Source of the DNA: Synechococcus sp. A15-28
Lineage (GTDB): Bacteria; Cyanobacteriota; Cyanobacteriia; PCC-6307; Cyanobiaceae
Direction of reading: 5' to 3'
DNA length: 32,000 nucleotides
Assembly: GCF_014280175.1 (NCBI RefSeq)
Contig: NZ_CP047931.1
Coordinates: forward strand, 960,001-992,000
The stretch's first letter is position 1, and the number at the start of each line of letters is the position of its first letter. A program made the translations under genes and the position numbers. Positions 1-14,428 of this stretch are shown piece by piece. The notes beneath the pieces are model-generated. The model made no database searches. It had not been told where the DNA came from and worked only from the letters and a program-made list of their open reading frames with translations.

Positions 1-303
1 CAAGAGAGTTCAACCTATTCCTTTCATGGGTGGTCTGGTCTCCCAACCCTTATCACATCACATGTTTAAAGATGCGTAAGCTAGCGACATAGGCCTTCTT
101 TTCACCAGGAAGAGCGGCCTTCCTCTTTAGGGAGTTACGAAAAATAGGGCCATCCTCCTGCAAGTTAGTCTTATTAAACCTGGGTTGTTTGGCAAAAAGT
201 CCGCCGTAAAGCCTTGGTACGGTTAGTACGAAAAACTTTTGCGACAAAAACCAACGGGCTGCTGTCTTCTGCTTACTAGTTTTAATGTATCTACTGTTGT
301 TTG

Positions 304-573
304 ATGGCCTTCCGAGTGCGCCTAAGAAGCATGTCCGACTATGGGTATGCAGTTCTCTGGGAGAAAGTTCGAATTGAATATTTCACCAGTGTTGGTGATC
401 AACAACGCGCTGACCAATGCAAAAAATACCTGCAGGAGCTGGAGTGGCGCTTGGCCATGTTGCCTTCGACTGATCATCTTGAGCAGCTAGAGCAAAGCTC
501 AGGTGATCCATTGGCAGATGCCGGCTGGATTCCCTCTGAGGAAAAACATCAATTCCATGCAAAAAATAGTTAG
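304..573 (+). CDS. hypothetical small protein (89 aa)
   Basis: Track ORF 301..573; the first ATG is at 304 (TTGATGGCC). It lies in the AT-rich island. No family recognised. Confidence 0.3.
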   Translation: MAFRVRLRSMSDYGYAVLWEKVRIEYFTSVGDQQRADQCKKYLQELEWRLAMLPSTDHLEQLEQSSGDPLADAGWIPSEEKHQFHAKNS

Positions 574-615
574 CGTCATATTTTTCGTGGCAACTCACCG
601 AATGAAACCAATAAA

Positions 616-831
616 TTAGTACTCACCTGGTATACCGAATTCAGCTCTGCAGTTATTGACATCGACTCTGTACTGAGTCCACTTTGTATTCTTTTCAGAA
701 GCGGCCAGCACACATCTTTCATATGTTTTTGGTTCTTGCTTTTGTTGGTCATCTTCTTCAGCAGCTTTAGCTACTGGACATGCAACAGTGATTATCGCGC
801 CAACAATAATCAGAAAGGATTTAATCTCCAC
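616..831 (-). CDS. small secreted protein candidate (71 aa) with signal-peptide-like N-terminus
   Basis: Lies inside track ORF 616..945. A GTG at 831 gives (M)EIKSFLIIVGAIITVACPVAKA/AEEDDQQKQ, a hydrophobic core followed by an AxA-like site. The upstream part of the long ORF looks non-coding. The SD is poorly spaced, so the start is uncertain. Confidence 0.35.
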   Translation of the reverse strand: MEIKSFLIIVGAIITVACPVAKAAEEDDQQKQEPKTYERCVLAASEKNTKWTQYRVDVNNCRAEFGIPGEY

Positions 832-868
832 TCCCTCATCCCATTGACTTATTATTTTAAACCGATGT

Positions 869-1282
869 TTACCTGCAGTGCGTTTGGTGCGTGAAGCGTC
901 CACGGAAGTGAGCAGCAAACTGCGCATCCAGTTGTGGCTGCACAACCATTGCTCGCAATGCGTTCAACGCACCAACAGCTGAGGCGTACTGACCATCGCG
1001 TTCAGCCTTGGCCGCCAGGCGTTGATACTGCGTTGCCAACCAACCCACCATCTGCTGAAGCTCAACCAAGTCCAAGGCGTTCGCTAGTTCACTCTGAGCG
1101 ATTTCTAGGTCACGCAGACTCGTTCGCCTGCTGCACCCCCACTTCACAGTCAGCTGAGACGCAGCATCAGTTGGTGGAACACAACTGCTGATCAGCTGTA
1201 GAGCCTCGTTACGACGCTGCTGGCGTTGTTGTCTAGTAGTTATTGCCATGTTAGGGAGCGGCAAATTTTTGAGTTGGGGCAC
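869..1282 (-). CDS. hypothetical protein with HTH-like segment (126-137 aa)
   Basis: Track ORF with a GTG start at 1282 and an alternative ATG at 1249 (MAITTRQQRQQRRNEAL). The segment ASQLTVKWGCSRRTSLRDLEIAQSEL resembles a helix-turn-helix, followed by a helical tail. No family assigned. Confidence 0.45.
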   Translation of the reverse strand: MPQLKNLPLPNMAITTRQQRQQRRNEALQLISSCVPPTDAASQLTVKWGCSRRTSLRDLEIAQSELANALDLVELQQMVGWLATQYQRLAAKAERDGQYASAVGALNALRAMVVQPQLDAQFAAHFRGRFTHQTHCR

Positions 1283-1383
1283 TGATAATAATAATCATTC
1301 TTTGTTCCAATAATGATTCTCTTTCTTATGCTTAGGTCACATTACTGTTCTAGTATTGAAATGAAATTACGAGGTCAACTCAA

Positions 1384-1554
1384 ATGTCAACAGCCGTCAA
1401 CTGTGCATGTCCTAAATGTACTTGCGAGGTCAGCGAGGAGAGCGCAATTGTTCTTCAGGGTAAGTTCTTCTGTTCGACAGCCTGTTCAACAGGGCATCCC
1501 AACAATGAGCCCTGTCATGGTGAAGGTTCTTGTGGGTGTAAATGCGGTGAGTGA
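1384..1554 (+). CDS. smtA: bacterial metallothionein, SmtA/BmtA family (56 aa)
   Basis: Hand translation: MSTAVNCACPKCTCEVSEESAIVLQGKFFCSTACSTGHPNNEPCHGEGSCGCKCGE, with TGA at 1552-1554. It has 10 Cys and 2 His in the CxCxxCxC ... C..AC..GH ... C.H...C.C.C spacing typical of Synechococcus SmtA. It is absent from the ORF track because it is under 60 aa. Confidence 0.8.
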   Translation: MSTAVNCACPKCTCEVSEESAIVLQGKFFCSTACSTGHPNNEPCHGEGSCGCKCGE

Positions 1555-1627
1555 TCAGGGTCACTGATGACGTTGGTGTGGCTTGAGGCGTTCGTTTGGT
1601 GAAGGCCATGTCAATCAGATCAGCTTC

Positions 1628-1642
1628 GGGGGGGGGGGGGGG
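1628..1642. repeat. G15 homopolymer tract
   Basis: Counted directly: G at every position 1628-1642 (cttc G15 aggattt). A second T7G6 tract lies at 1685-1697. Confidence 0.95.
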
Positions 1643-1656
1643 AGGATTTGGCGGTT

Positions 1657-1735
1657 TTTAGCTGAGAAGCATTGGTGTTACTGGTTTTTTTGGGGGGTGC
1701 CGTGTATAGGTTGTGTCCGCGGCCCTTGCCCGGAG
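1657..1735 (+). repeat. diverged third copy of the 70-nt repeat unit
   Basis: gctgagaagcattgg (1661-1675) matches unit 2 gctgagatgcattgc at 13/15 positions. The 17-mer ccgcggcccttgcccgg at 1707-1723 is identical to 2073-2089. This copy carries about 13 extra nt between the two blocks. Confidence 0.7.
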
Positions 1736-2035
1736 ATTTATTGGGCCAGCTGCATTGTCGTTACCTAGCTTCATGATCGTGTGTACGTAAATGACGCTTC
1801 TGAAAGATCCGCCGGCATTGTATTTAGCTTTTCAGCAATTAATTTTCTCTCATGTTTCATGGCCCATTTAAATGCTGGCGAACAAGCGATGTGTAAAGCG
1901 CAACTACTCCAATTGGCGCGTGAAATTGAAATAGAAACAAACATACGACGAATGGAAATTGCTAGAGAGCGTTTCTCTTCAAAGACTGATTCAGTTGTCG
2001 TAGTAGCAGGTAATGGCGGGGGCTTTAAGGGCATA

Positions 2036-2175
2036 AATCGCTGAGATTAACTGCGCTGCAATGGATTTACCCCCGCGGCCCTTGCCCGGCGCTTTTGGGG
2101 GTGTGAATCGCTGAGATGCATTGCGCTGCAGTGGATCTACCCCTGCCGGTCTTGCTGGCCGGTTTTCACTCCATT
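2036..2175 (+). repeat. two tandem 70-nt repeat units (candidate small-RNA genes with terminator-like 3' ends)
   Basis: Unit 1 is 2036-2105 and unit 2 is 2106-2175. They are 49/70 identical overall and 48/61 over the first 61 nt. Each ends in a GC hairpin followed by TTTT. In unit 2, CCGGTC (2146-2151) pairs with GGCCGG (2157-2162), then TTTT at 2163-2166. In unit 1, GCG(G)CC (2075-2080) pairs with GGCGC (2088-2092), then TTTT at 2093-2096. Confidence 0.85.
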
Positions 2176-2245
2176 CAGGCTTGTAACAAGAGCTACAAGT
2201 GCTGACTATTTGTCTTAGACCAAGGACAGAGAAGAGGAGGAAAAG

Positions 2246-2347
2246 ATGCTCAACGAAATGCTTCTCACCACCACCCTGTGCGTTGCCATCGTTGGCGCTA
2301 TGGCTCTCTTCTATAGAGAGCTTCAGCTGCTGCAACAAGATCACTAG
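2246..2347 (+). CDS. 33-aa hydrophobic single-TM peptide
   Basis: ATG at 2246 is preceded by GAGGAGG (2234-2240) with a 5-nt spacer. Translation: MLNEMLLTTTLCVAIVGAMALFYRELQLLQQDH, with TAG at 2345-2347. Below the track cutoff. The antisense 117-aa track ORF (1991..2344) looks spurious. Confidence 0.45.
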   Translation: MLNEMLLTTTLCVAIVGAMALFYRELQLLQQDH

Positions 2348-2366
2348 TTAGTCAGCTCCCAATCAT

Positions 2367-2558
2367 TCACAACAGCCCTGCACCTTTGAAGGCTTCGATC
2401 ACTTCTGCTTCCGCAGCGGGATCGAGGTTCATGTCAGCGATGGTGTCCTGAATGATGCGCCTGGTGATGGCGAACCATTCCTTGCGCGTTGCTGAGCGTG
2501 GCCAGACGTCTATTTCAAGGACTGGTGTTGGAGAGACATGATCAAGGATGATCGGCAT
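2367..2558 (-). CDS. hypothetical small protein (63 aa)
   Basis: Track ORF with an ATG start. The composition looks coding-like (MPIILDHVSPTPVLEIDVWPRSATRKEWFAITRRIIQDTIADMNLDPAAEAEVIEAF). No family recognised. Confidence 0.45.
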   Translation of the reverse strand: MPIILDHVSPTPVLEIDVWPRSATRKEWFAITRRIIQDTIADMNLDPAAEAEVIEAFKGAGLL

Positions 2559-2647
2559 CGGTATCGGGCGCGTCTCTGAACGACTTGCGGTCTAGATCCA
2601 CATTTTTGACGGTACTTAGCCATTATAGTGTTAGGTATTGCATTCTC

Positions 2648-3202
2648 ATGAAAGAACCTTCACTCAACAATGACGACAATTTCCAGATCTTTCTTCAAGG
2701 TCGCAACAAAAAAGCTAAATATTTAAAATATAATCTGTCACTCTTTTCGAAGGGTACGAATAAAATTGAATTAATCAGTTATAGCTTTGATGGTGATACA
2801 ACAATTCACTTTGCTAAAAACAGAAAAGACGCAAGAAAGGTTCATTCAACACATGATGTTGATTTAATTTTTGATCAAAAGAAGGGTTTTCTCTATAGGA
2901 ATCGCAATGGAGCTGGCAAAGGGTTTGGAAAGAAAGGTGGCGTAATTGCTCGTCTTAGCAATTTGTCAAATATTGATTCAAGTGACTTCCTATTTTCTAA
3001 TTCCAGTGATAGAGATTTAGGAGAATCATATCAAGGTTCAGATGAATCTACGTCATCTGATTCTTCTAGTACCAGCTATGGCGATTATAACTATGGATAT
3101 CGCGGGCAAAGTTATTCTAGATTGTTTGATCCCGAGAATAGCTTTGATTGCGGGCTTGATGCATTGTGGGATATGCAGACTAGTCCCTTCTGCACATTCT
3201 AA
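2648..3202 (+). CDS. AT-rich hypothetical protein (184 aa) with RTX-tail-like motif and Ser/Asp/Tyr-rich low-complexity C-terminal half
   Basis: Track ORF 2585..3202 starts at TTG; the first ATG is at 2648 (MKEPSLNNDD). This is the lowest-GC stretch in the window. The motif GFLYRNRNGAGKGFGKKGGVIARLSNLSNIDSSDFLF resembles the L.Y..NG.G......IA.L....L...DF tails of secreted Ca-binding repeat proteins (from memory, unverified). Confidence 0.55.
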   Translation: MKEPSLNNDDNFQIFLQGRNKKAKYLKYNLSLFSKGTNKIELISYSFDGDTTIHFAKNRKDARKVHSTHDVDLIFDQKKGFLYRNRNGAGKGFGKKGGVIARLSNLSNIDSSDFLFSNSSDRDLGESYQGSDESTSSDSSSTSYGDYNYGYRGQSYSRLFDPENSFDCGLDALWDMQTSPFCTF

Positions 3203-3410
3203 ATAATAAGATCTTGTGGAAGGCGATTCACGATCAGGTCAGCCTGAATAGGAAGCTGACGTTTGGGCACTAAAACGCGTATTTGGGATACATACAGCTT
3301 GGCTTTTAAGAGTATTATAAAACAGCCAGTTTTACAGTAAACTGTAGTCACCGCAGCGATGGTCCTAGCTTTCGTTCAGACCCTTAGGTGAGCCTCGATC
3401 AGCTTGTCAT

Positions 3411-3539
3411 TCAAAGTGCTGGATAAGCATTCGAAACACCCCATAGGGCGAGAGCTGTGATGCAAGCAAAGACGACAGCAGTTGAAGCTGCCAAATCAGC
3501 TTTCTTCGACTTCTGAACAAATTGAAGTAATCGAGCCAT
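3411..3539 (-). CDS. 42-aa single-TM peptide candidate
   Basis: Hand translation: MARLLQFVQKSKKADLAASTAVVFACITALALWGVSNAYPAL, with the stop at 3411-3413. Its ATG at 3539 lies 4 nt after the stop of the upstream 48-aa ORF. Confidence 0.3.
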   Translation of the reverse strand: MARLLQFVQKSKKADLAASTAVVFACITALALWGVSNAYPAL

Positions 3540-3543
3540 GGTT

Positions 3544-3690
3544 TTAATGCTTAACCCCCCTGTCATGGCTCAGCAGGTCTGTTTGTTCCATCAATGTGAG
3601 TGAGCCCGCATCAATAGTCGGCACATGATGTCGTTGTAGCCGCAGCTGCACAGGCAATTTGAAGCTCACTTCCGTGGGAGCCACTCGCAT
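3544..3690 (-). CDS. 48-aa hypothetical ORF candidate
   Basis: Hand translation: MRVAPTEVSFKLPVQLRLQRHHVPTIDAGSLTLMEQTDLLSHDRGVKH, with TAA at 3544-3546. It is tightly followed by the 42-aa TM ORF. An ORF this short could be open by chance at ~50% GC. Confidence 0.25.
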   Translation of the reverse strand: MRVAPTEVSFKLPVQLRLQRHHVPTIDAGSLTLMEQTDLLSHDRGVKH

Positions 3691-3740
3691 AAGCCGTTCC
3701 GGCGCTGACATTCCATTGTCACGATCTAATCAACTGAACA

Positions 3741-4112
3741 GTGGCAAAACCTTGGGATGCCTATCAAATGGCTGACTCCTTCTTTGTACTTCCCATGCAG
3801 ATGTATCTCGCGGATTGCGTTTTTCCTGAGATTGAAGGTCAACTGGCTGCTTACAAATGCTTCTGTGAGCTGTGGGATTCAGGAGAAATAGCGAAGCTAG
3901 ACAACTTTGATGGCTTTGAAATGTTGTTCCGCGTCCACGCACCTGGCGCAGGCCGAGTAACAATTTTGTTTAAGGCAGAGAGTGATGCTCAGATCTTTGA
4001 AGCCTTCGCGCCATGGCGTCCTCAATTCGGCATTGAGATGGACTTCACTCCTGTAATCCGGTGTCAGGATGTGGTCGGTTACCACAAAAAGCTTTTCGCG
4101 AAGATGTCCTGA
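3741..4112 (+). CDS. small cyanobacterial protein, DUF3303-like (114-123 aa)
   Basis: Track ORF with a GTG at 3741 and an alternative ATG at 3768. The C-terminal pattern ...VTILFKAESDAQIFEAFAPWRPQFGIEMDFTPVI resembles the DUF3303 family as I recall it. The family call is unverified. Confidence 0.5.
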   Translation: MAKPWDAYQMADSFFVLPMQMYLADCVFPEIEGQLAAYKCFCELWDSGEIAKLDNFDGFEMLFRVHAPGAGRVTILFKAESDAQIFEAFAPWRPQFGIEMDFTPVIRCQDVVGYHKKLFAKMS

Positions 4113-4324
4113 GCAGTGCGTAGGTAAGGCAGTACTGGAAAGCCGTACGGGAGAACAGTGTCCAGACCATTCCACCGTGCTATCATCTTCAAATGACCAC
4201 TAATATGATTAGTTTCGCTAATAGATAGTGCTAAGCAATTTAGGCCCAACTTATCTGGCGCTAAATAATGAAGGCGATCTGAAGAAACCTACGCTGTACT
4301 ACACAAGAAGGACCCGTATTCGTC

Positions 4325-4555
4325 TTAATTACGTGATCTAACCGTGCTGCTGTCGATATAAATTCCATGCATCTTCTTGTCCATGCAGTCATAGAACTTT
4401 TGAGAGAAGTCAAGGTCAACGCTCGCGCAGAAGGCATGTGCCCTGTCAGCCACCTGCTCAAACTTCTTCATTGACAGGAAGACTTGCTTGTCGCTGAAAG
4501 AGAGCGCAGGTTCTGCCATGAACAGCATTGAGAAGGGCAAGACGAGAAATTTCAT
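4325..4555 (-). CDS. small secreted protein candidate (76 aa)
   Basis: Track ORF with an ATG start. It has a signal-peptide-like N-terminus (MKFLVLPFSMLFMAEPALS/FSDKQ). Confidence 0.45.
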   Translation of the reverse strand: MKFLVLPFSMLFMAEPALSFSDKQVFLSMKKFEQVADRAHAFCASVDLDFSQKFYDCMDKKMHGIYIDSSTVRSRN

Positions 4556-4759
4556 GACGTCAGTCTGGCGCGGGATATCCGTAGATTAGTAGCAATGGGA
4601 AGCGTACATTGCTGTTTGGCGTGACTGTTTTACATCACCTAAGCCGTTAGAGGAAAATTACACGTTACGTTGATGTGGCTGAAAACTTTCGTTTGGTGAG
4701 ATGTGATACGACATCCTCCGAATGAGCAGGCTTAGACCAAAGGAAATAAGGTTTTACTC

Positions 4760-4960
4760 ATGACAATCCACATCACCAACGCCCAATCGCTTGGAAATCT
4801 CATCGTTGAAGGTACACACAGGCCGTTTCGTGCTTTGGCCTGCCCTCTAGGAAATATCTCTCGTAAAGTTGACTTTGTGGAAGTTTTCGCTGAGAAAACT
4901 TTCAGCGCACCGGATCTGCCACGGACACTTGCTGTGAGGCATGCGTTACCGGTGGGCTGA
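4760..4960 (+). CDS. small orphan protein A (66 aa), paralogue of 13276..13452
   Basis: ATG is preceded by AAGGAAATAAGG. The N-terminal 28 aa, MTIHITNAQSLGNLIVEGTHRPFRALAC, align with ORF B at 15/28 identity, and 10 of the 15 identical residues use different synonymous codons. This argues for selection on the protein. Confidence 0.6.
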   Translation: MTIHITNAQSLGNLIVEGTHRPFRALACPLGNISRKVDFVEVFAEKTFSAPDLPRTLAVRHALPVG

Positions 4961-5055
4961 AGCGCATCCCGAAGGAGCTGGTGCTTGCTGTTGATCAGAT
5001 GACAGCAGAACTGGAATAACTCTCTCTCCTCCCAACACACACACCACTACACACA

Positions 5056-5161
5056 GCCCATATCAAGGGAAACACCAGTCAGTGACAACGATTATGCGCG
5101 GCCCATATCTCATAACCCGAATGGCCCACATCCAAAATTTATGGGCCGTTTTTTATGGGCC
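5056..5161. repeat. cluster of five TATGGGCC-type motif copies downstream of the 200-aa ORF
   Basis: The copies are gcccatat at 5056-5063, ggcccatat at 5100-5108, atggcccacat at 5121-5131, tttatgggcc at 5138-5147 and tttatgggcc at 5152-5161. Two are in + orientation and three in - orientation. Confidence 0.8.
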
Positions 5162-5190
5162 ATGCCCCTTTTACAGGGGGGAGGGGGTGT

Positions 5191-5793
5191 CTAAAAAAAC
5201 TTTGGCGCCACTTCCAGCAGGCACGATCTCAGGTCCTTTGGATCTGGCTTACCCAGCAGCCACTCCTTGCCTCTTAGCCGCTTGATGCTGGACTTGATCG
5301 CTTCAGCAGAGTGCTGAGGAAGCCCTTCTGTCACGGTCCTGATGCTGGGCTTGATGCCGTGCTGGTTTTGCTTCCTGACGTACTCCATGACGTCGCTGTT
5401 GACCTTGCTGATGTCTGACGTCTTCTTCTGCTCCATCAGCTCAGGCCACAGGAAATCGCCCTGCAGTTGGTACTGACGACGGATGCCTTCACTGCCACGG
5501 CACTTGATCGGCTTCAGGCTCACCAGTTCGTTCTGCTCTTTCTCCAGCAGGTAGACCATGTCTGGTGCTTCCTGTAGTGCCTTGTTGTCTGCGATCTTTC
5601 CAACCTTGTTGGCGTGATGGATCCACAGCAATGCAGCATTGCGCAGAACGATGTCATGCACCGCATCCATGTGATGCCGAATGATCGGTCTTGAGATGTC
5701 ATCAAGCAATGGCCCAAGGGCGCCCTTCAGTTCGGCATTGCGGGCTTCAAGGGCTGTCTCCAGCGCTCTTTCGTGGCGTGTTGAGGCGACCAA
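5191..5793 (-). CDS. hypothetical protein (200 aa) with winged-helix-like C-terminal segment
   Basis: Track ORF with a TTG start at 5793 and no in-frame ATG near the N-terminus. The segment VMEYVRKQNQHGIKPSIRTVTEGLPQHSAEAIKSSIKRLRGKEWL looks HTH/wHTH-like. The ORF is flanked on both sides by related short repeats. No family recognised. Confidence 0.55.
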   Translation of the reverse strand: MVASTRHERALETALEARNAELKGALGPLLDDISRPIIRHHMDAVHDIVLRNAALLWIHHANKVGKIADNKALQEAPDMVYLLEKEQNELVSLKPIKCRGSEGIRRQYQLQGDFLWPELMEQKKTSDISKVNSDVMEYVRKQNQHGIKPSIRTVTEGLPQHSAEAIKSSIKRLRGKEWLLGKPDPKDLRSCLLEVAPKFF

Positions 5794-5840
5794 GCTGTGG
5801 CCATAACTGTGGCCATAACTGTGGCCATTATGTGCCCATT
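5793..5840. repeat. 12-bp tandem repeat, three near-perfect units plus one degenerate unit, overlapping the ORF start
   Basis: The units are agctgtggccat (5793-5804), aactgtggccat (5805-5816), aactgtggccat (5817-5828) and the degenerate tatgtgcccatt (5829-5840). On the minus strand the unit reads ATGGCCACAGTT. Confidence 0.9.
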
Positions 5841-5943
5841 GGACTGCTTTGCAACGCTCTATAAGGCTGAGAACACCCTTGTGAACTCAGTCGTGGCGGG
5901 AATCTCCCTTGGTTGCTGTGGCTTGCATTAGGAGCGCCGTTCC

Positions 5944-6126
5944 ATGGCCTGGGGGGCATGGTCAGTGGACCCCGCCAAGCTTCGGCGGCTTGGGCGTGCC
6001 TTCAATTGCTGGCGCGCGGAGCATCCCGAGCAGGGGGATTGGCTGCTGCAGCTTGCCGTCGCCGTGGTGCCGTTGCCGCCGGCCCGTGGTGCCGTGCGCT
6101 GGTTCGGACTGGATCAGCTGTGCTGA
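5944..6126 (+). CDS. hypothetical small protein (60 aa) in a GC-rich patch
   Basis: Several frames on both strands are open across 5909-6209. This frame has the most host-like GC3-rich codon usage (GCC, GAC, CCC, AAG, CTG, GTG). Translation: MAWGAWSVDPAKLRRLGRAFNCWRAEHPEQGDWLLQL... Confidence 0.35.
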   Translation: MAWGAWSVDPAKLRRLGRAFNCWRAEHPEQGDWLLQLAVAVVPLPPARGAVRWFGLDQLC

Positions 6127-6172
6127 TGCGCAGGTGTTCCTCACCCTTTGGCGTGCGGTCCGGACTCCTTGA

Positions 6173-6451
6173 TCAAGCCAGCCATCGGGTGATCACCGTG
6201 CCGTCGTAAACGTGGCCTGAAGCTTCAACAACTGGCTTCGTTTGGGGATTCGTGAAGATGTCGTAAAGAACATTTTCGGGGCCTTGAAACATCACTGTTG
6301 CCCGTGTGGGATCGCCCTTACAGACTCCGATGTAAAAGGTTTGAACTCCCATCTCTGCGAACATCGCTTGCTGCTCGGGAGCATTCATCCAGGCACGGTA
6401 TTCGTCAAAGGTGTTGCTGATCTTGAAATCCAGAACAGTGGTTTCCGTCAT
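6173..6451 (-). CDS. small cyanobacterial protein, DUF3764-like (92 aa)
   Basis: Track ORF with an ATG start. MTETTVLDFKISNTFDEYRAWMNAPEQQAMFAEMGVQTFYIGVCKGDPTRATVMFQGPE resembles small picocyanobacterial island proteins. The family name is from memory and unverified. Confidence 0.55.
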   Translation of the reverse strand: MTETTVLDFKISNTFDEYRAWMNAPEQQAMFAEMGVQTFYIGVCKGDPTRATVMFQGPENVLYDIFTNPQTKPVVEASGHVYDGTVITRWLA

Positions 6452-6462
6452 GACTGATCAAA

Positions 6463-6573
6463 TCAGATAATTTCCTTCCGGCCTGCTTTGATCTGATCTC
6501 GGGCGGAGACCAGTCCTACAACAAGCAGGACCAGCAGTCCGGCATTGATGCTGATGAAGAACATCGTGTCCAT
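6463..6573 (-). CDS. 36-aa single-TM peptide candidate
   Basis: Hand translation: MDTMFFISINAGLLVLLVVGLVSARDQIKAGRKEII, with TGA at 6463-6465. It ends 11 nt upstream of the ATG of the DUF3764-like gene on the same strand. Confidence 0.3.
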   Translation of the reverse strand: MDTMFFISINAGLLVLLVVGLVSARDQIKAGRKEII

Positions 6574-6755
6574 GACTGTGAAGCGGTTCGTCCCTTGATA
6601 AGGAGATGCGGCAAGACAGCCCATCCGTCAGAAGACTCATTTAGTTAGGGGAGAGCGCTGCCCTGTTCGATCCCTCAGTTGAGGGAGGTGGTCTGTGTTG
6701 CGACACGCTGGTGTGAGATCGACCGTTCGCTGTGGGCAACCACGAGCGTTAATCC

Positions 6756-7661
6756 ATGGGGTTTCAAGGTCACCAGGCCCGCAAACGCTTCGGTCAACAC
6801 TGGCTGAAGGACCAGATGGTGCTCGATCGCATCGTGGCGGCGGCTGACCTGCAGTCGTCGGATCGCGTTCTTGAGGTGGGACCGGGGCGCGGTGCTCTCA
6901 CCGAGCTACTGCTGGCCTCCCCGGCTGCTGCCGTCCATGCCGTGGAACTGGATCGCGATCTGGTGGATGGCCTGCGGGATCGCTTTGGCGGAGATCCGCG
7001 CTTCAGCCTGTGTCAGGGGGATGTGCTGGAGCTGCCGCTGCAGCTGGAGGACGGCGTTGCGGCAAAAGTGGTGGCCAACATCCCTTACAACATCACAGGC
7101 CCGCTGCTGGATCGGCTGGTGGGGCGCCTCGATCGACCTGTGGATCCGCCCTACCAGCGTCTGGTGCTCTTGGTGCAAAAAGAAGTGGCTGAGCGGATCA
7201 GGGCCCGTCCCGGTCACAGCAGCTTCAGTGCCCTGAGCGTGCGGATGCAGTTGATGGCCCGGTGCACGACGGTCTGTCCTGTCCCTCCCCGCTGCTTTCA
7301 GCCACCTCCGAAGGTTCAGTCGGAGGTGATTCAGATCGACCCTCTGCCGTCGGCTCAGCGCCTGTCGCCTGCGTTGGCCCGACGGGTGGAGTCGTTGCTC
7401 AAGCAGGCCTTTCTGGCCCGCCGGAAGATGTTGCGCAACACCCTGGCATCGCTGGCTCCGGAGCCACAGCTGCAGGAGCTGGCCGCCGCTGCGGGGTTCC
7501 ACCTTCAACAACGGCCGCAGGAGTTGGCTCCGCAGACCTGGGTGGCTCTGGCCAGGGGTTTGAATCAGGGCACTGATGCGGCCTCAGCCGATGGGCACGA
7601 TCACGGTGACGGCACCGGCCAAGGTGAATCTTCATCTGGAGGTGCTGGGGGTCAGGCCTGA
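6756..7661 (+). CDS. rsmA: 16S rRNA (adenine1518/1519-N6)-dimethyltransferase RsmA/KsgA
   Basis: Shows GQHWLKD, the SAM motif [12 protein letters not shown], and [11 protein letters not shown]. The Gly/Asp/Ser-rich C-terminal tail runs into ispE. Confidence 0.9.
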
Positions 7662-8520
7662 CGGCTTTCACGAGCTGGCGATGGTGATGCAGAGCATCGA
7701 CCTCGCTGATCGCCTCAGCTTTCGAACGACGGCCGATGCTGAACTGACCCTCAGCTGTGACGATCCGAGTCTCAGCCTCGCGGACGACAACCTGGTGATC
7801 AAAGCGGCCCAGTTGCTGCGTCGTCGCTCCGGTTTGAGTGAACTGGGTGCCGCCATTCATCTGGAGAAACGCATCCCCATCGGTGCCGGGCTGGCCGGAG
7901 GTTCAAGCGACGGTGCTGCTGCCCTGGTGGGACTCAATGCCCTCTGGGGTCTGGGCCACAGCTCGGCAGACCTGGAGCGGCTTGCGGCCGAACTCGGTTC
8001 CGACATGCCGTTCTGCGTGGCGGGGGGCAGTCAGCTCTGTTTTGGTCGCGGCGAGCTGCTGGAGCCACTGCCTGCTGTGCAGGACCCCCTGGCAGTGCTC
8101 CTGGTGAAAGATCCAGACGTGAGCGTGTCGACTCCCTGGGCCTATCGCCGCTGCCGGGAGTTGCAGGGGGATCGCTATCTGCAGGGAGAAGACTCCTTCG
8201 AGCAACGTCGCCAGGTGTTGCGGGGGATGGCCTGGACCCAACCGATCCGTGCTGCGGAGCCGCCACCGCTGCGCAATGACCTGCAGTCGGTGGTGGCCCC
8301 TGAGACGCCCGCGGTTCAGGCTGCGCTTCGCCTGCTCTCCTCGCTTGAAGGCACCCTTGCCGTGGCCATGAGTGGATCCGGCCCCAGTTGTTTTGCGCTG
8401 TTTGCTGATCCAGCCAGCTGCGCGGCAGCCCAGACCAAACTGGATCATCAACTGGCTGCAGAGGGATTGCGAAGCTGGTGCTGCCCCTTGCAACCGCACG
8501 GCGTCAGGATCGAAGCATGA
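7576..8520 (+). CDS. ispE: 4-diphosphocytidyl-2-C-methyl-D-erythritol kinase IspE
   Basis: N-terminal [17 protein letters not shown] and the GHMP kinase motif [17 protein letters not shown]. There is an alternative ATG at 7591. Confidence 0.9.
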
Positions 8521-8834
8521 GCTCCTCCGACCCCAAGTCAACGCCAGCAGCGGAAGTACCTCGCAAGGGACCCCTGAGTTTTTTCTCCGGTGCCGTGACC
8601 GCGGGGGTCCTGGCCTGGCTGGCGCTGGGGCTCAGCCGGCGGATGGTGGTTTACTTCGCGGTCCATCCGCCCCACTACAGCTCCCCGATCGCCCAGAACA
8701 TCGCGGTGACCCTGAAGACGCTGCTGGTGGGGCTGTCGTTTCTGGCCACCTTCAGCACAGGCTTTGTGGCGCTAGGGCTCACGCTGGTGTTTCTTCGCAG
8801 TGTCTTCACAGGTCCCTCGAACGACCCTGCCTAG
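8517..8834 (+). CDS. conserved small membrane protein (DUF3082-like, 105 aa)
   Basis: Its ATG at 8517 overlaps the ispE stop (ATGA at 8517-8520). Two predicted TM segments ([18 protein letters not shown] and [25 protein letters not shown]). The family name is from memory. Confidence 0.6.
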
Positions 8835-8858
8835 CGTCGATTTGGCAGATCTCTGTTG

Positions 8859-8954
8859 ATGACTCCCCACGACCTCGGGCAGCTGGCGCTTCTGCTCTCT
8901 CCGGCGATGCTTCTGTCCGTGCTGTTGCTGTTCACCTTCGCCGCCGGCGGGTAA
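8859..8954 (+). CDS. 31-aa hydrophobic peptide candidate
   Basis: Hand translation: MTPHDLGQLALLLSPAMLLSVLLLFTFAAGG, with TAA at 8952-8954. It lies in the gap between the membrane protein gene and pdhB. In high-GC DNA this could be a chance ORF. Confidence 0.25.
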   Translation: MTPHDLGQLALLLSPAMLLSVLLLFTFAAGG

Positions 8955-9016
8955 CGCTGCCCTGGCTGAGATAGCTTGGCCGCTCACCCCGGATTGGCCG
9001 GGATCGCAGCGACGCC

Positions 9017-10000
9017 GTGGCAGGAACCCTTCTCTTCAACGCCCTGCGGGAAGCCATCGACGAGGAGATGGCCCGCGACCCTTACGTCTGTGTGATGGGT
9101 GAGGACGTCGGTCACTACGGCGGCAGCTACAAGGTCACCAAGGATCTCTGCGAGAAGTACGGCGATCTGCGGGTGTTGGACACCCCGATTGCCGAGAACG
9201 GCTTCACCGGCATGGCAGTCGGAGCGGCCATGACCGGCCTGCGGCCGATCGTTGAGGGGATGAACATGGGTTTCCTGCTGCTCGCCTTCAACCAGATCTC
9301 CAACAATATGGGGATGTTGCGCTATACCAGCGGCGGCAACTTCACGATTCCCACGGTGGTGCGCGGTCCCGGGGGAGTCGGCCGGCAGCTTGGGGCTGAG
9401 CACAGCCAGCGCCTTGAGGCCTATTTCCATGCTGTTCCCGGCATCAAGATCGTGGCCTGCAGCACGCCGACCAACGCCAAGGGGCTGATGAAGGCGGCGA
9501 TCCGAGACAACAACCCGGTGTTGTTCTTCGAGCATGTGCTGCTCTACAACCTCAGCGAGGAACTGCCGGAGGGTGAGTTCACCTGCGCGCTCGATCAGGC
9601 GGATCTGGTGCAGGAAGGCAGCGATGTCACGATCCTCACCTACTCCCGCATGCGTCACCACTGCCTCAAGGCCGTGGAACAGCTGGAGGCTTTCGGCATC
9701 AGTGTCGAGTTGATCGACCTGATCAGTCTCAAGCCCTTCGATATGGAGACCATCGGGCGATCCATCCGCAAGACCCACCGCGTGATCGTGGTGGAGGAAT
9801 GCATGAAGACCGGCGGCATCGGTGCTGAGTTGATCGCTCTGATCACGGAGCAATGCTTCGACGATCTCGATGCCCGACCTGTGCGGCTCTCCAGTCAGGA
9901 CATTCCCACCCCTTACAACGGCTCCCTGGAGAATCTGACGATCATCCAGCCCCATCAGATCGTGGAAGCCGCCCAGCAGATGGTGCGTCAAGGGGTTTGA
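9017..10000 (+). CDS. pdhB: pyruvate dehydrogenase E1 component beta subunit
   Basis: GTG start. [39 protein letters not shown] and the rest are typical of transketolase-like E1 beta subunits. Confidence 0.92.
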
Positions 10001-10004
10001 GTTG

Positions 10005-11486
10005 ATGGCGCGTTATCAGGGCTGGTTCGCCTTTGTTCTCGCCCTGGCCATTGCGTCAGGGATGTTTCTGGTCCGCACTCCGCTCCAGCTTGGGCTGGAT
10101 CTGCGCGGCGGCAGTCAGTTGACGGTGCAGGTTCAACCGGCAGGGGACGTCAAGGTGGTGGGCGATCGCGAAATGGAAGCCGTCAAGGCGGTGCTGGATC
10201 GTCGTGTGAATGGCCTGGGGGTGGCGGAATCCACGCTCCAGACCGTCGGTACCGACCAGCTGGTGTTGCAACTTCCTGGTGAACAGGACCCCACAGCCGC
10301 GGCCCGGGTTCTTGGTGACACGGCTCTGCTGGAGTTCCGCGCCCAGCGGGAGAGCACCGAATCTGAATTTCGCAGCTTGCGTCAGCTCCAGTCCCAGGCC
10401 GGAGCCATCCTTCAACTGCGCAAGGACCAACGCCGGCGCGGCGAGACACCGGATGAGCTCAACCTGGAGGATCTGAAGGATGTGCAGTCGTCCTTGGGCT
10501 TGAAGGCCGAAGGTGGCAGCGACGATGAGCTGCTTCAGGCGCTGCTGGATCAGGTGGACGATGAACTCCTCACCCTGTTGGACCCGGCGGCGCTGACGGG
10601 AAAACAACTGGTGACGGCGGGTCGACAGCCCTTGCAGAACAACCCCAACAGCTGGGAGGTGACGCTGAATTTCGATGCTGAGGGCGCGGAAGCCTTTGCC
10701 GATCTGACCAAGTCGATCGCCGGTTCCGAGCGGCTGCTGGCCATCACGTTGGACAACAAGCTGATCAGTGCGGCCAGCGTGGGACCACAGTTCAAAAGCG
10801 CTGGAATTTCTGGCGGTGCAGCCACCATCAGCGGCAACTTTGATGCTGAAACTGCCCGGGAACTGGAGGTGAAACTGCGCGGCGGTTCTCTTCCGCTTCC
10901 GGTTGAAGTGGTGGAGGTGCGCACGATCGGGCCGACGCTCGGTGCCGAGAACATTCGCCGGAGCCTGATGGCTGCATTGTCTGGCCTCGCCCTGGTGGCG
11001 GTGTTCATGGTGGTGGCTTATCGGTTGCCAGGTGTCGTGGCCGTAGCGGCCCTGAGCCTGTATGCCCTGTTCAATCTCTCGGTCTATGCCCTGATTCCAG
11101 TGACGCTCACCCTGCCTGGGATTGCTGGATTCATCCTCTCCATCGGTATGGCGGTGGATGCCAACGTGCTGATCTTCGAGCGAATCAAGGATGAGTTACG
11201 GGGCGGCAACACCCTGATCCGTTCGATCGACACCGGTTTTTCGGAGGCCTTCAGTTCGATTCTCGATGGTCACCTCACCACGCTGATCAGTTGCGCGGCT
11301 CTGTTTTTTCTCGGCACCGGCCTGGTGAAGGGGTTTGCGGCAACCCTTGGCATCGGTGTGCTTTTGAGTCTGTTCACAGCCCTCACCTGTACCCGCACCC
11401 TGCTGCGTTTCCTGATGGGCTACGCCGGCCTGCGCCGTCCCACCTATTTCATTGCTCAGGGACAACGTCCCACCACGACTGCCTGA
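10005..11486 (+). CDS. secD: protein translocase subunit SecD
   Basis: ATG at 10005 (the track starts at TTG 10002). Shows GLDLRGGSQL and the C-terminal 6-TM SecDF domain (GIAGFILSIGMAVDANVLIFERIKDE). Confidence 0.92.
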   Translation: MARYQGWFAFVLALAIASGMFLVRTPLQLGLDLRGGSQLTVQVQPAGDVKVVGDREMEAVKAVLDRRVNGLGVAESTLQTVGTDQLVLQLPGEQDPTAAARVLGDTALLEFRAQRESTESEFRSLRQLQSQAGAILQLRKDQRRRGETPDELNLEDLKDVQSSLGLKAEGGSDDELLQALLDQVDDELLTLLDPAALTGKQLVTAGRQPLQNNPNSWEVTLNFDAEGAEAFADLTKSIAGSERLLAITLDNKLISAASVGPQFKSAGISGGAATISGNFDAETARELEVKLRGGSLPLPVEVVEVRTIGPTLGAENIRRSLMAALSGLALVAVFMVVAYRLPGVVAVAALSLYALFNLSVYALIPVTLTLPGIAGFILSIGMAVDANVLIFERIKDELRGGNTLIRSIDTGFSEAFSSILDGHLTTLISCAALFFLGTGLVKGFAATLGIGVLLSLFTALTCTRTLLRFLMGYAGLRRPTYFIAQGQRPTTTA

Positions 11487-11489
11487 TCG

Positions 11490-12467
11490 ATGGCCGCTTC
11501 CCCCAACACCACATTGGTTCTGCGCCTGCCCCTGAGCTCATCTCGACGTCGTGTCTGGCTGGTCTCGGGTCTCACTGTGCTGGTGGCTCTGGTCGGACTG
11601 ATCAGTTGCTGGCTGAATCCAGGCATCGCAGCACCCCTGCGACCGGGGCTCGATTTCACCGGGGGAACGCAGATCCAGTTGGAGCGCGACTGCGGTGAAA
11701 GCTGCCGCGACCTGAAGTCCATTGCCGTCTCTGCCCCTGTTCAATCCCTGCTCTTGCCGGCTGAGAAGGAGGACTCCGTTCCCAACCTCCGTTCGGCGCG
11801 GGTGCAGTTGCTTGACGGAGGCCAGTCGCTGGTGCTGCGTGTGCCCACGCTGACGGCTGCCCAGGGTCAGGCTCTGATTGCTGCGGTTGAACCCATTGCC
11901 GGTCCGTTTGTCGCAGGGGGACAGTCGGTCGACACCATCGGTCCGAGTCTGGGGCGTCAATTGCTGCGCAGCACGCTGATCTCCCTGGTGGTGGCTTTTG
12001 GTGGAATTGCCCTGTACATCTCCTTTCGCTACGACGGCCGTTATGCCTTTCTGGCGCTCGTGGCTCTGGCCCATGACGTCGTGATCGTCTGTGGGGTCTT
12101 CGCCTGGTTGGGTTTGTTGATGCAACTGGAAGTGGACAGCCTCTTCGCCGTGGCTCTGCTGACGATCGCCGGCTATTCCGTGAATGACACCGTTGTGGTG
12201 TTCGATCGGATCCGGGAGCGTTCCCGTGATGGTGCGGACCTGAGACTCTCGGAGCAGGTGGATCAAGCGGTGTCCGCAACCCTCACCCGCACGCTTTACA
12301 CCAGTGGCACCACTTTGCTGCCCCTTTTGGCCTTGATCTTCTTCGGCGGAGCAACCCTTTACTGGTTCGCCATTGCTCTGGCGTTGGGGGTGGTGGTGGG
12401 CAGCTGGTCCAGCATTGCCCTGGCACCTTCGTTGCTCACGTTGTGGGAACCCCGTGCTGAATCCTGA
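11490..12467 (+). CDS. secF: protein translocase subunit SecF
   Basis: Starts 3 nt after the secD stop. Shows GLDFTGGTQ and IAGYSVNDTVVVFDRIRE. Confidence 0.92.
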   Translation: MAASPNTTLVLRLPLSSSRRRVWLVSGLTVLVALVGLISCWLNPGIAAPLRPGLDFTGGTQIQLERDCGESCRDLKSIAVSAPVQSLLLPAEKEDSVPNLRSARVQLLDGGQSLVLRVPTLTAAQGQALIAAVEPIAGPFVAGGQSVDTIGPSLGRQLLRSTLISLVVAFGGIALYISFRYDGRYAFLALVALAHDVVIVCGVFAWLGLLMQLEVDSLFAVALLTIAGYSVNDTVVVFDRIRERSRDGADLRLSEQVDQAVSATLTRTLYTSGTTLLPLLALIFFGGATLYWFAIALALGVVVGSWSSIALAPSLLTLWEPRAES

Positions 12468-12672
12468 TCGCCACCAATCCTCGGCGGCACAGCGGTCGGC
12501 ACGATGGTGGCCTTTGTTGCTGGTGCTGCTGGCGTTGGGGGATCTGAGGACGGAAATTTTGCTCCTGCTTGACCACTTCACGCTGACCAGCGCTCTTTAT
12601 GCCCTGAGTCATCACGCCCTGGCTGTGGCCGTGCTGATCGGTGCACCCTCGCTCTGGCGCCGCTACGCCTGA
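12454..12672 (+). CDS. small two-TM membrane protein candidate (72 aa)
   Basis: Lies within track ORF 12373..12672. A GTG at 12454 overlaps the secF end by 14 nt. Host-like codon usage, with TM segments WWPLLLVLLALG and ALAVAVLIGAPSLW. Confidence 0.4.
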   Translation: MLNPDRHQSSAAQRSARWWPLLLVLLALGDLRTEILLLLDHFTLTSALYALSHHALAVAVLIGAPSLWRRYA

Positions 12673-13058
12673 GAGGGGCGGGCACCGAATTCACTCCAGA
12701 TGGACGACCAGATCCGCCGTTTGATGTCGTCGTTCCAATGACCGCCGGAGGCATTGGATGCCCACCACGAATCGAACAGCTCCTCCGCTTCCTCGTAAAG
12801 CAACTCTGGATCAAGGTTCTCTCGAACCAGTTGCAGCACCGCCTGTCTCAGCTCCTCGTAGCGGCTGAAATTGAAGATCACATCCACGGCAAGTTGTCCG
12901 GGCAGACACCGTCCACCGTATGGGATCACTCGGAAGACCAAATAGCGCGATAAACCGTCGGATTCGGTTAGCGTCTCAATCTCTATCTTGCCTGACGCAT
13001 GTTGAAAGCTCTGGTCTCGATGTTGTTTGCAGCCGTGCTGTGGGTTCAGGTTCCTCAA
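12663..13058 (-). CDS. hypothetical protein (up to 131 aa; start uncertain)
   Basis: Track ORF. The first ~20 codons overlap the divergent 86-aa ORF and look non-coding, so an internal TTG or GTG start is possible. The C-terminal part is acidic and Trp-rich (LDPELLYEEAEELFDSWWASNASGGHWNDDIKRRIWSSIWSEF). Confidence 0.4.
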   Translation of the reverse strand: MRNLNPQHGCKQHRDQSFQHASGKIEIETLTESDGLSRYLVFRVIPYGGRCLPGQLAVDVIFNFSRYEELRQAVLQLVRENLDPELLYEEAEELFDSWWASNASGGHWNDDIKRRIWSSIWSEFGARPSQA

Positions 13059-13259
13059 TGGGAGAACGACTGGTCAAGATGTTCTGTTGACGTTCCGGAC
13101 GTGGATTGTCATTGGTATGTGGTGGCACCAGACAACACCTTTGGTGAGGGATTCAGCTGGTCGAACGCACCGTGGTTCAGTGCTGAGGGGTTGTTGGATG
13201 TCGGCAACCTGAAGCAAACAATGGGCAACATTCACGCAACTGCTGCTGCTGATGCCTGA
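12999..13259 (+). CDS. small secreted protein candidate (86 aa)
   Basis: Track ORF with an ATG start. Hydrophobic N-terminus (MLKALVSMLFAAVLWVQVP), followed by a Trp/Asp-rich mature part. Confidence 0.4.
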   Translation: MLKALVSMLFAAVLWVQVPQWENDWSRCSVDVPDVDCHWYVVAPDNTFGEGFSWSNAPWFSAEGLLDVGNLKQTMGNIHATAAADA

Positions 13260-13275
13260 GTTCATCAACAACCAG

Positions 13276-13452
13276 TCAGGCAAATAAATCTTGCAGATCC
13301 TGTCGGCGTGCTCGACGACTCTGGGGAGAATCCAATGGTGATTCGCCCTGATGAATGACGCTCATCGAGCAGGCAAGGGCTCGAAAAGGGCTGTGAATTC
13401 CATCGTCAATCTCGCTGCCGATCGGGTAGCCATTGGACAAATGAACAGTCAT
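13276..13452 (-). CDS. small orphan protein B (58 aa), paralogue of 4760..4960
   Basis: Lies within track ORF 13276..13470 (GTG); the ATG at 13452 gives MTVHLSNGYPIGSEIDDGIHSPFRALAC, then an unrelated tail SMSVIHQGESPLDSPQSRRARRQDLQDLFA. Confidence 0.55.
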   Translation of the reverse strand: MTVHLSNGYPIGSEIDDGIHSPFRALACSMSVIHQGESPLDSPQSRRARRQDLQDLFA

Positions 13453-13519
13453 TTTGAACAATATTTCCACACATGGTCTACGGAGCTGCTGTCGAGAACT
13501 GACGACCGGTTTACCGAAC

Positions 13520-13666
13520 TCAAGTGGTCAAATGACTCAAAACAGCTCCAAGACGCATTCCTGATTTCTGATACCCAGCGATTGCCAGGGCGACCACCGA
13601 GAAATTGAGCACAAGGAAAGCGGTGATCAGCTTGAGTTCGTTTCTCATTCCCGCAATCTGATCCAT
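13520..13666 (-). CDS. 48-aa single-TM peptide candidate
   Basis: Hand translation: MDQIAGMRNELKLITAFLVLNFSVVALAIAGYQKSGMRLGAVLSHLTT, with TGA at 13520-13522. It is on the same strand as orphan protein B and 67 nt upstream of it. Confidence 0.35.
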   Translation of the reverse strand: MDQIAGMRNELKLITAFLVLNFSVVALAIAGYQKSGMRLGAVLSHLTT

Positions 13667-13791
13667 CCTTGAGGCCGGCGTGGATCAGGTCTTCATTTGG
13701 CAATCGGTCGCCTCAGCAGACCGATGTGATTCAGCCTCGCAGTGGCCGTGGAGCCGTCGTTAATGTTTTTTAACAATCCGTCTGCGCTGTC

Positions 13792-14031
13792 GTGCTTGGT
13801 GCCCTGTTCCCTCTTGCGTATGTCGTTGTTTTTGTCGGCCTGCTGCTTCAGGCCTTTCGGATGATGAGGATTTCTGCCGCATCATCGATGAAGGAGGCGA
13901 CAGATCGAACAGGGCTTCGCACGGTTCATCCTGAGTTGTTGGATGCGAAGGGCAACGTCACTGACGAGGAGCTTTGGGCTGTTCGCTTTCAGGATCTGAA
14001 CGAAAACGGCTTGGCTCCTGAAGCCAGCTGA
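13792..14031 (+). CDS. small membrane protein (79 aa), possibly DUF2973-like
   Basis: GTG start. N-terminal TM segment (LFPLAYVVVFVGLLLQAF), then a charged tail containing VHPELLDAKGNVTDEELWAVRF. The family assignment is from memory and unverified. Confidence 0.5.
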   Translation: MLGALFPLAYVVVFVGLLLQAFRMMRISAASSMKEATDRTGLRTVHPELLDAKGNVTDEELWAVRFQDLNENGLAPEAS

Positions 14032-14040
14032 CCATTGACC

Positions 14041-14096
14041 GCGGAGCCGAGAGAGAAACAAGACTCGCCTGTCACTCCCGAGCGATTCGGCTCCGC
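14041..14096. terminator. perfect 10-bp inverted repeat (long hairpin) between convergent genes
   Basis: gcggagccga (14041-14050) is the exact reverse complement of tcggctccgc (14087-14096), with a 36-nt loop. There is no U-tract, so a terminator role is inferred from position only. Confidence 0.4.
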
Positions 14097-14152
14097 TCAC
14101 GCACCCTGACCACGGGAACGTTGGCTGGGGGTAATCGATGGAATCTCTCTCG

Positions 14153-14365
14153 TCATTGGAAGACGATGTGAAGGCGCAGGAACAGTCCCTGCCGAGCCTT
14201 GTCAAGTCGGAGGGACTGTTTTCTGCCAGCTACCAAGTCGCTCTCTCGGTGCTGCTGAAGCGTCCACCCGATGGTCAGTGGAACCTCAGGTGCCCTTTTT
14301 AGAGAGTTCGGCCTGGCCACGCACGTGATGTTCCACGGATTTTTGGGATCAAGGATTTCTTCCAT
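14153..14365 (-). CDS. hypothetical small protein (70 aa)
   Basis: Track ORF. AAGGAG lies 5 nt upstream of the ATG (GGTTTCAAGGAGCTTCATG). No family recognised. Confidence 0.45.
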   Translation of the reverse strand: MEEILDPKNPWNITCVARPNSLKRAPEVPLTIGWTLQQHRESDLVAGRKQSLRLDKARQGLFLRLHIVFQ

Positions 14366-14428
14366 GAAGCTCCTTGAAACCTGTGCTCAGGACGACAGAA
14401 CGTCCGGCCGAGTCGAACTAGCCGATGA

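Follow-up and report, generated by a model that had tools for sequence, protein, structure and literature searches.

Marine Synechococcus is a major ocean primary producer, and its variable islets are full of unannotated small genes that pipelines often miss. Among the small proteins of cyanobacteria, CP12 and the GS inactivating factor IF7 are modulators of other proteins' action. Another group, the IF17-like/DUF4278 small proteins of marine picocyanobacteria, has glutamine-II ('Downstream-peptide') riboswitches upstream of its genes (Klaehn et al. 2018, PMC6212724). The family described here resembles the IF17-like proteins in being very small, multi-copy and picocyanobacterial (in its case from marine Synechococcus only) and in occupying the same small-gene islets, but it lacks a match to Pfam DUF4278 (PF14105-type), a 5' riboswitch and any sequence resemblance to them. 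Of 40 loci scanned, 7 (L010, L011, L014, L018, L019, L023 and L037), from at least four independent contexts, have a glutamine-II riboswitch no more than 3 kb from a family member, and none of the loci scanned with Rfam has a riboswitch directly upstream of a family member. Genes of the glutamine-II riboswitches and genes of the family seem to share small-gene islets.

Two members of the family lie in the window, by which we mean the whole 32,000-nucleotide stretch of Synechococcus sp. A15-28 DNA that was analysed. The features needed to follow the comparison are these:

1-5500: island that holds ORF A
4760-4960, + strand: ORF A, 66 aa, with a long 'A-type' tail (family HMM E=1.4e-20)
4760-4849, + strand: conserved N-terminal module of A, codons 1-30, MTIHITNAQSLGNLIVEGTHRPFRALACPL, from the family profile
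between island and islet: the core genes ksgA, ispE, pdhB, secD and secF
12500-14400: islet that holds ORF B, a DUF2973 gene and a Cyano-2 RNA
13276-13452, - strand: ORF B, 58 aa, with an 'ESPLDSxQSRRARR-xELQDLFA' tail (family HMM E=1.8e-16)
13363-13452, - strand: conserved N-terminal module of B, codons 1-30, from the family profile and the AlphaFold model
rest of the window: two AI-2E transporters, a rhodanese, an anti-sigma kinase, a methyltransferase, glnA, an aminotransferase, a decarboxylase, a GTPase, lspA and two M16 peptidases

Both ORFs were found at the coordinates and with the translations given for them in a preliminary description of this DNA, and the comparison made there held codon by codon: 15 of 28 N-terminal residues are identical between A and B, and 10 of those 15 are written with different synonymous codons. 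The nucleotide identity of the two 28-residue blocks is 51/84. As a single comparison, A against B gives a BLASTP E value of 7e-12; when the 447 stop-to-stop segments of at least 40 aa in the window were compared all against all, the pair ranked third (E=8.5e-9), and only true paralogue pairs, the two AI-2E transporters and SecD/SecF, stood above it. The earlier conclusion that the similarity is kept at the protein level is borne out by the 51/84 nucleotide identity, the 10 synonymous changes and a three-base periodicity. Applied to the six-frame translation of the window, the family HMM, built from 216 trimmed members, finds exactly two copies, A and B. We considered a third, degenerate copy, a 12-codon stub starting 'MTIH' at 13112 on the - strand (MTIHVRNVNRTS*), and put it down to chance since it has no family-HMM match. 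A and B each lie in a stretch of lower GC content (~0.48-0.55) that is flanked by core genes at ~0.62.

No called protein on record has exactly the sequence of either ORF. A called TARA ORF (P0001) contains the whole of ORF B, 58 residues, after a 5-residue N-terminal extension, and B has syntenic orthologues at the loci L041-L044; orthologues of ORF A, at 77-92% identity, are present in metagenomes. A profile search started from A and B gave 37 matches, all of them short proteins; when 1.84 billion cluster representatives were searched exhaustively with HMMER, 101 matched at E<=1e-3, again all short; and a profile made from divergent members gave 159 matches. The search for further homologues that had been proposed earlier has in this way yielded a large family of more than 200 distinct sequences. 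Every named match is a 'hypothetical protein' of marine Synechococcus (e.g. WH 8016, MIT S9220, A15-127 and BIOS-U3-1), the clusters also include members from WH 8020 and ROS8604, and a few members have RefSeq accessions, such as WP_006852716.1 from WH 8016. A pattern scan of one genome per species located 33 genomic family loci, among them loci of WH7803 and MIT S9503/S9507/S1220, and even with the strict pattern HxPFRALAC[PS] 2-3 copies were counted in some genomes. Two proteins of 45 aa (P0136) and 58 aa (P0240, a cluster-mate of a WH 8020 protein) are both recorded with a longest contig of 2,662,920 bp, so that they probably come from one genome with at least two paralogues that carry different tails.

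Individual copies show some peculiarities. The WH7803 copy (L039) has a TTG start codon, and in the WH 8017 copy (L040, 2977-3147) one inserted nucleotide puts block codons 6-9 out of frame, which marks either a pseudogene or a sequencing error. Two ~53-kb contigs (L034 and L035) of a planctomycete MAG labelled Blastopirellula sp. NAT61 contain identical family genes together with a Synechococcus-type neighbour ORF, and are likely to be mis-binned picocyanobacterial DNA.

The view that the block belongs to no named family agrees with the curated libraries: Pfam and NCBIfam gave no match to A, B and 29-30 further members, even at E<=10, and PADLOC and PHROGs gave none to A, B and up to 30 members. 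No family match was found among PDB sequences, nor in phage genomes (searched with tblastn) or viral contigs. A full-text literature search returned no paper with 'PFRALAC', and nothing on the family was found in the literature on small proteins and ncRNAs of marine Synechococcus. As far as searched and as judged from sequence comparison, the family is uncurated, previously undescribed and limited to marine Synechococcus.

With mis-called upstream starts trimmed off, the family collection comprises 206 distinct sequences. Their lengths run from 39 to 66 aa, typically 39-58 with A at 66, and peak at 41, 44, 46-50, 53, 58 and 66 residues. The family signature is M-x-[IL]-[HDS]-x-A-x-A-[QE]-[PS]-[IM]-G-x-[LF]-I-x-[ED]-G-x-H-x-P-F-[RH]-A-L-A-C-[PA]-[LI]; A and B agree from Met1 with the family definition M-x-[IL]-x4-A-x-x-[IM]-G-x-[LF]-I-x-[ED]-G-x-H-x-P-F-[RH]-A-L-A-C-[PA]-[LI] at 39-66 aa, every near-invariant residue being present in both. 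G12 and H20 are invariant in the family profile, C28 is found in 203/206 and an acidic residue 17 (E/D) in 205/206, and residue 29 is Ala in 41/206. At position 4, 87 of the 206 sequences have His, 80 have Asp and 21 have Ser, and several subtypes have extra His/Cys clusters at positions 4-9 (HLHH, HTAH, SCCAH and PCCAE). Met occupies block position 1 in 201/206 sequences, and the alignment shows the start codon to be the first residue of the conserved block. From the same profile we rejected a lipoprotein or secreted peptide, as the would-be hydrophobic region holds acidic 17, His20 and Arg/Lys at 21 and 24 and its -3 residue is Ala, not Leu/Val/Ile; type I toxin and double-glycine leader readings were likewise rejected.

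Conservation of the genes follows the reading frame. In 35 distinct DNAs, the first, second and third codon positions have mean entropies of 0.85, 0.54 and 1.43, and at columns outside the search pattern the corresponding values are 0/0/1.31 (G12), 0.19/0.19/1.79 (E17) and 0.42/0.50/1.88 (G18). The dN/dS of N-block and tail, a comparison that the preliminary description had recommended, was computed by the Nei-Gojobori method for three subtypes. Block and tail values are 0.078 and 0.306 for the MEIHTAHAEP subtype, 0.19 and 0.24 for the ESPLDS subtype, which includes B, and 0.07 and 0.32 for the MEIHLHH subtype; the resulting block range of 0.07-0.19 is somewhat flattered because codons 20-29 are part of the search pattern, and the tail range is 0.24-0.32. 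These tail values mean that the tails are translated and constrained, less strongly than the block. Taken together, the substitution patterns show the family genes to be protein-coding and under purifying selection and, as had been proposed, both ORFs are almost certainly translated, to judge from codon-position entropy and dN/dS. Among close A-type genes, dN/dS is ~1 in both block and tail, at very low divergence, and constraint on the A lineage may be relaxed.

The tails had been taken to be hypervariable. They fall instead into about six classes, which are conserved among orthologues (dN/dS of 0.24-0.32) and co-diverge with the N-block subtypes:

RPxxVRIGRKx: total length 41-44 aa, the commonest class
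PIGPSCRL...K: total length 46-49 aa
PLKPAVLKDxREAKSQ: total length 45 aa
ESPLDSxQSRRARRx: 53 aa, or with an added xELQDLFA 58 aa, as in B
DYDESQMRDDDVIRHQQRSEVEYDC: total length 58 aa
A-type group: holds ORF A

The commonest tail is basic, 10-14 residues long and has no pattern of modifiable residues; over the family, tails range from strongly basic to strongly acidic, most being basic. This pattern is, on the evidence of the class-wise divergence, that of ancient whole-gene paralogues and not of cores shuffled on a constant leader. Nor are the tails of A and B wholly unrelated, as had been stated: residues 34-44 of A (SRKVDFVEVFA) align with the C-terminus of B (ARRQDLQDLFA) with a BLOSUM62 score of 23, a weak motif whose score was equalled in 24/2000 shuffles. 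Three features lie in this part of the two ORFs:

13279-13326, - strand: C-terminal helix of B, about residues 43-57, SPQSRRARRQDLQDLF, AlphaFold pLDDT 82-84
4895-4960, + strand: distal tail of A, codons 46-66, delimited by pairwise dN/dS
4929-4998, + strand: dispersed repeat of ~60-70 nt that covers the last 10 codons of A and the 3' flank

Tails of the 53-aa and 58-aa classes also carry the helix motif of B. A comparison of five A-type DNAs gave a dN/dS of ~2.1 for codons 46-66 and 0.57 for codons 31-45, both from small counts, and the A-type sister proteins P0015, P0018, P0021 and P0025 stop or frameshift within the distal tail. The last ~20 codons of ORF A are probably a fortuitous, unconstrained 3' extension and not a functional 'core'. 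Further copies of the dispersed repeat are found at 77-121 and 407-468 (- strand) of L041, both partial, and at 1455-1495 of L046; as RNA, it folds no better than shuffled sequences (z=0.05). Read in another frame, it encodes ...GGLKRIPKELVLAVDQMTAELE*. The sequence repeated at the 3' end of A may be a fragment in common with another family of small genes.

The AlphaFold models of the two proteins are both of low global confidence. For A, the model (from a 91-sequence alignment) has a mean pLDDT of 66 and a pTM of 0.23, with residues 1-30 at pLDDT ~80, and it contains almost no regular secondary structure apart from a helix at residues 39-44, the distal tail being disordered. For B, mean pLDDT is 75, pTM 0.32 and the N-module lies at pLDDT 62-86; here residues 14-15 pair with 23-24 in a beta bridge around the [ED]-G-x-H-x-P loop, and the helix at 43-57 is predicted with confidence. 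Both segments of the weak tail motif common to A and B are predicted to be helical. Foldseek found no match in the PDB to either model.

The flanking DNA of A and B, described earlier as dissimilar, has the hexamer TAGACC in common at -27 and -28. The upstream elements are:

4733-4738, + strand: TAGACC, -10-like hexamer, 27 nt before the ATG of A
13475-13480, - strand: TAGACC, -10-like hexamer, 28 nt before the ATG of B
4667-4699, + strand: upstream element of A-type genes, direct repeat D2, 82% identical to an orphan copy at 1570-1602

In 31 of 42 distinct upstream regions, TA[GC]A[AC]C starts at -26 to -30 (shuffles: mean 0.65, maximum 4), and in several subtypes TTGAC[TC] stands 17 nt 5' of the hexamer. 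We infer that the hexamer is a -10-like promoter element with a short 5' UTR, an assignment made less secure by its terminal C, which is atypical against the canonical T. The element at 4667-4699 also aligns with the upstream region at L008. Its orphan copy of ~33 nt has no family ORF after it, and a run of 15 G is present at 1628-1642.

The gene 3' of family members is usually convergent or unrelated. From its usual convergence each family gene is probably its own transcription unit, and the convergent or unrelated 3' genes mean that the family ORFs are not leaders for the gene downstream. Paralogues with different tails, several per genome, are found mostly in small-ORF-rich, lower-GC islets, and several of the loci have tRNA or tmRNA genes nearby. 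Other neighbours are small hypothetical ORFs, including DUF1651-like genes, as well as DUF2973 and cyAbrB. An unannotated ORF family of ~63-86 aa with the motif 'MYFIERRG..QWIREL..KAxIGARRKAIATL' and no Pfam match was also seen; one of its members is near a family gene in 10 loci (L003, L009-L012, L018, L019, L023, L034 and L035), adjoining members of three subtypes in convergent, co-directional and divergent arrangements.

The statement that the window holds no modification enzyme, protease or exporter was too broad as worded, given the presence of LspA, two M16 peptidases, SecD/SecF and two AI-2E transporters. All of these are core housekeeping proteins whose genes have no link to the ORFs. 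A check for RiPP maturases and exporters had also been suggested; made at 50 family loci, on stretches of DNA of up to ~12 kb, it revealed no maturase, protease, peptidase-domain exporter or immunity partner that recurs within 3-6 kb. The genes and elements close to A and B include the following:

4294-4978: two-gene module of 685 bp, made up of a 76-aa ORF (4325-4555, - strand) and ORF A, 97% identical to L045 5459-6143
13520-13666, - strand: 48-aa putative membrane ORF, 67 nt upstream of B on the same strand, …LITAFLVLNFSVVALAIAGYQKSGMRLGAVLSHLTT

The 76-aa ORF is signal-peptide-like, and the flanks of the module in L045 (infB, a tRNA and an HK97-type capsid gene) are unrelated to those in the window, which suggests that the pair formed by the 76-aa ORF and ORF A moves between islands or mobile elements. 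The 48-aa ORF, which is below the size range of most gene callers, has a translation conserved with a 68-aa gene 5' of the B-type copy in L042-L044, and is confined to the B-type locus. A Cyano-2 RNA (RF01702, 105 bits) at 14034-14256 on the - strand adjoins the DUF2973 gene (13792-14031, + strand); the RNA recurs in synteny at the B-type locus L041 and is found at L002 too, and it is the only Rfam match at E<=1 in bases 1-14500, which include both ORFs. A link between this RNA and ORF B was rejected, as the opposite-strand DUF2973 gene lies between them and the two are separate transcription units. In the island at 1-5500 there are, in addition, a 70-nt tandem duplication at 2017-2156 (74% identity) and a 55-nt inverted repeat, 888-942 with 3635-3689, whose arms are 73% complementary and 2.7 kb apart.

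We favour, at somewhat better than even odds for the two statements taken jointly, that ORF A and ORF B are anciently diverged paralogues of one small-protein family, and that they would act as stand-alone small cytoplasmic proteins, each with a conserved module of ~30 residues and a lineage-specific tail. How such proteins would work is a more tentative matter. In the mechanism that we propose, which is possible and on balance doubtful, the N-module would dock onto a conserved cellular partner or dimerise, perhaps in a metal- or thiol-dependent manner. The module would form a short beta hairpin around [ED]17-G18-x-H20-x-P22-F23, followed by [RH]-A-L-A-C28-[PA]-[LI]. Candidate metal or thiol ligands, named from residue identities only, are His20, Cys28, the acidic residue 17 and His/Asp at position 4; the proposal derives from the invariance of His20, the near-invariance of Cys28 and acidic 17, the His/Asp at position 4 and the extra His/Cys clusters at 4-9. 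The lineage-specific tail, mostly basic and with an amphipathic helix predicted in B and some other classes, would tune the action of the protein, and family members would be small modulator proteins of a kind common in cyanobacteria. The range of tails from strongly basic to strongly acidic is a poor fit to a single partner and speaks against this mechanism.

Several other explanations of the same data have to be weighed. A repeated DNA or RNA element, or mere chance similarity, might be suspected where the 3' end of ORF A falls within a dispersed repeat and a common upstream element exists, but the 51/84 nucleotide identity set against 15/28 identical residues with 10 synonymous changes, the strong three-base conservation periodicity over 35 distinct DNAs, family-HMM E values of ~1e-16 to 1e-20 and the lack of an Rfam match to either ORF at E<=1 (bases 1-14500) effectively refute any such non-protein reading. 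The ORFs might alternatively be regulatory leader peptides or ribosome-arrest uORFs, in which the nascent 30-residue block ending in Cys-Pro stalls the ribosome and controls a downstream gene. Conservation does run from Met1 and falls after residue 30-32, approximately the length of the ribosome exit tunnel, and the block does end in R-A-L-A-C-P; yet the Ala found at residue 29 in 41/206 sequences, the within-class conservation of the tails at the protein level and a 3' gene that is usually convergent or unrelated, leaving no co-directional target, make arrest peptides very improbable.

A leader-plus-core or polymorphic-effector layout had been suggested by the preliminary description, and is unsupported in view of the constrained tail classes, the absence of a cleavage motif and the absence of a recurrent maturase or exporter. 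As RiPP precursors, family members would have the N-block as leader for a maturase encoded elsewhere in the genome and the tails as cores. Their conserved N-terminus, paralogue-specific C-termini and several dispersed copies per genome would suit this, some tails are rich in Ser/Thr and Asp/Glu, and PF[RH]ALAC is faintly like PFFARFL, the leader motif of microviridins. Nif11/NHLP and all other NCBIfam and Pfam leader models fail to match, however, the 50 loci have no recurrent enzyme, protease or peptidase-domain exporter within 3-6 kb, the block/tail boundary has no GG/GA (double-glycine-type) motif, the invariant G, H, P, F and C differ from helical leaders, and purifying selection acts on the tails, which diverge together with the block and of which the commonest, RPxxVRIGRKx, lacks any pattern of modifiable residues. 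We regard RiPP precursors as improbable, and see a similarly slim chance that the N-block is what an enzyme or exporter encoded elsewhere in the genome recognises, in a new dispersed RiPP-like or secreted-peptide system; if it were, marine Synechococcus would possess a system comparable to the prochlorosins with an unrelated leader. Small proteins of a polymorphic toxin, immunity or defence-related kind, diversifying in genomic islands, would account for the island location, the several paralogues with variable tails, the A-type orthologue beside a tRNA and an HK97-type capsid gene and the dN/dS of ~1 among close A-type relatives. We think it unlikely that they do so here, as PADLOC and PHROG give no match, phage genomes and viral contigs do not contain the family, neither a transmembrane segment nor a secretion signal is present, no partner gene is conserved (the 'MYFIERRG' ORF being near in 10 loci only), and deep purifying selection acts on block and tails alike.

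To place the proposed stand-alone small proteins among known systems, we return to the precursors and small ORFs that they most resemble. Prochlorosin (ProcA) and other Nif11/NHLP-leader RiPP precursors of marine picocyanobacteria are likewise dispersed, multi-copy short genes with a conserved N-part and a differing C-part. The family differs from them in being unmatched by the leader models, in having a block of only 30 aa that starts at Met1, and in its tails, which are conserved within classes (dN/dS ~0.3), mostly lack Cys/Ser/Thr patterns and are not preceded by a GG/GA boundary. CP12 and IF7 have no homology to the family; the likeness, which we infer by analogy only, is that of stand-alone genes for proteins of less than ~80 aa that are partly disordered and contain a short structured or binding element, partner binding being what we propose for the family as well. 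Annotators can now use a model of a family that numbers over 200 distinct sequences, with several paralogues to a genome, is recognised by a clear signature and likely has its own promoter; experiments gain a target of 41-58 residues with H20 and C28 for point mutants. Close parallels are also the picocyanobacterial small ORFs DUF1651, DUF2973 and DUF3303, which share the size range, the island neighbourhoods and the taxonomic restriction of the family: DUF1651 or DUF1651-like ORFs are near a family gene in several loci, and DUF2973 and DUF3303 genes are near the copies in the window. These three are catalogued in Pfam, whereas the family is in none of Pfam, NCBIfam, PHROGs and PADLOC. The family adds to the lineage-specific families of small proteins in picocyanobacterial islets, such as DUF1651 and DUF2973, and is not a new kind of system.
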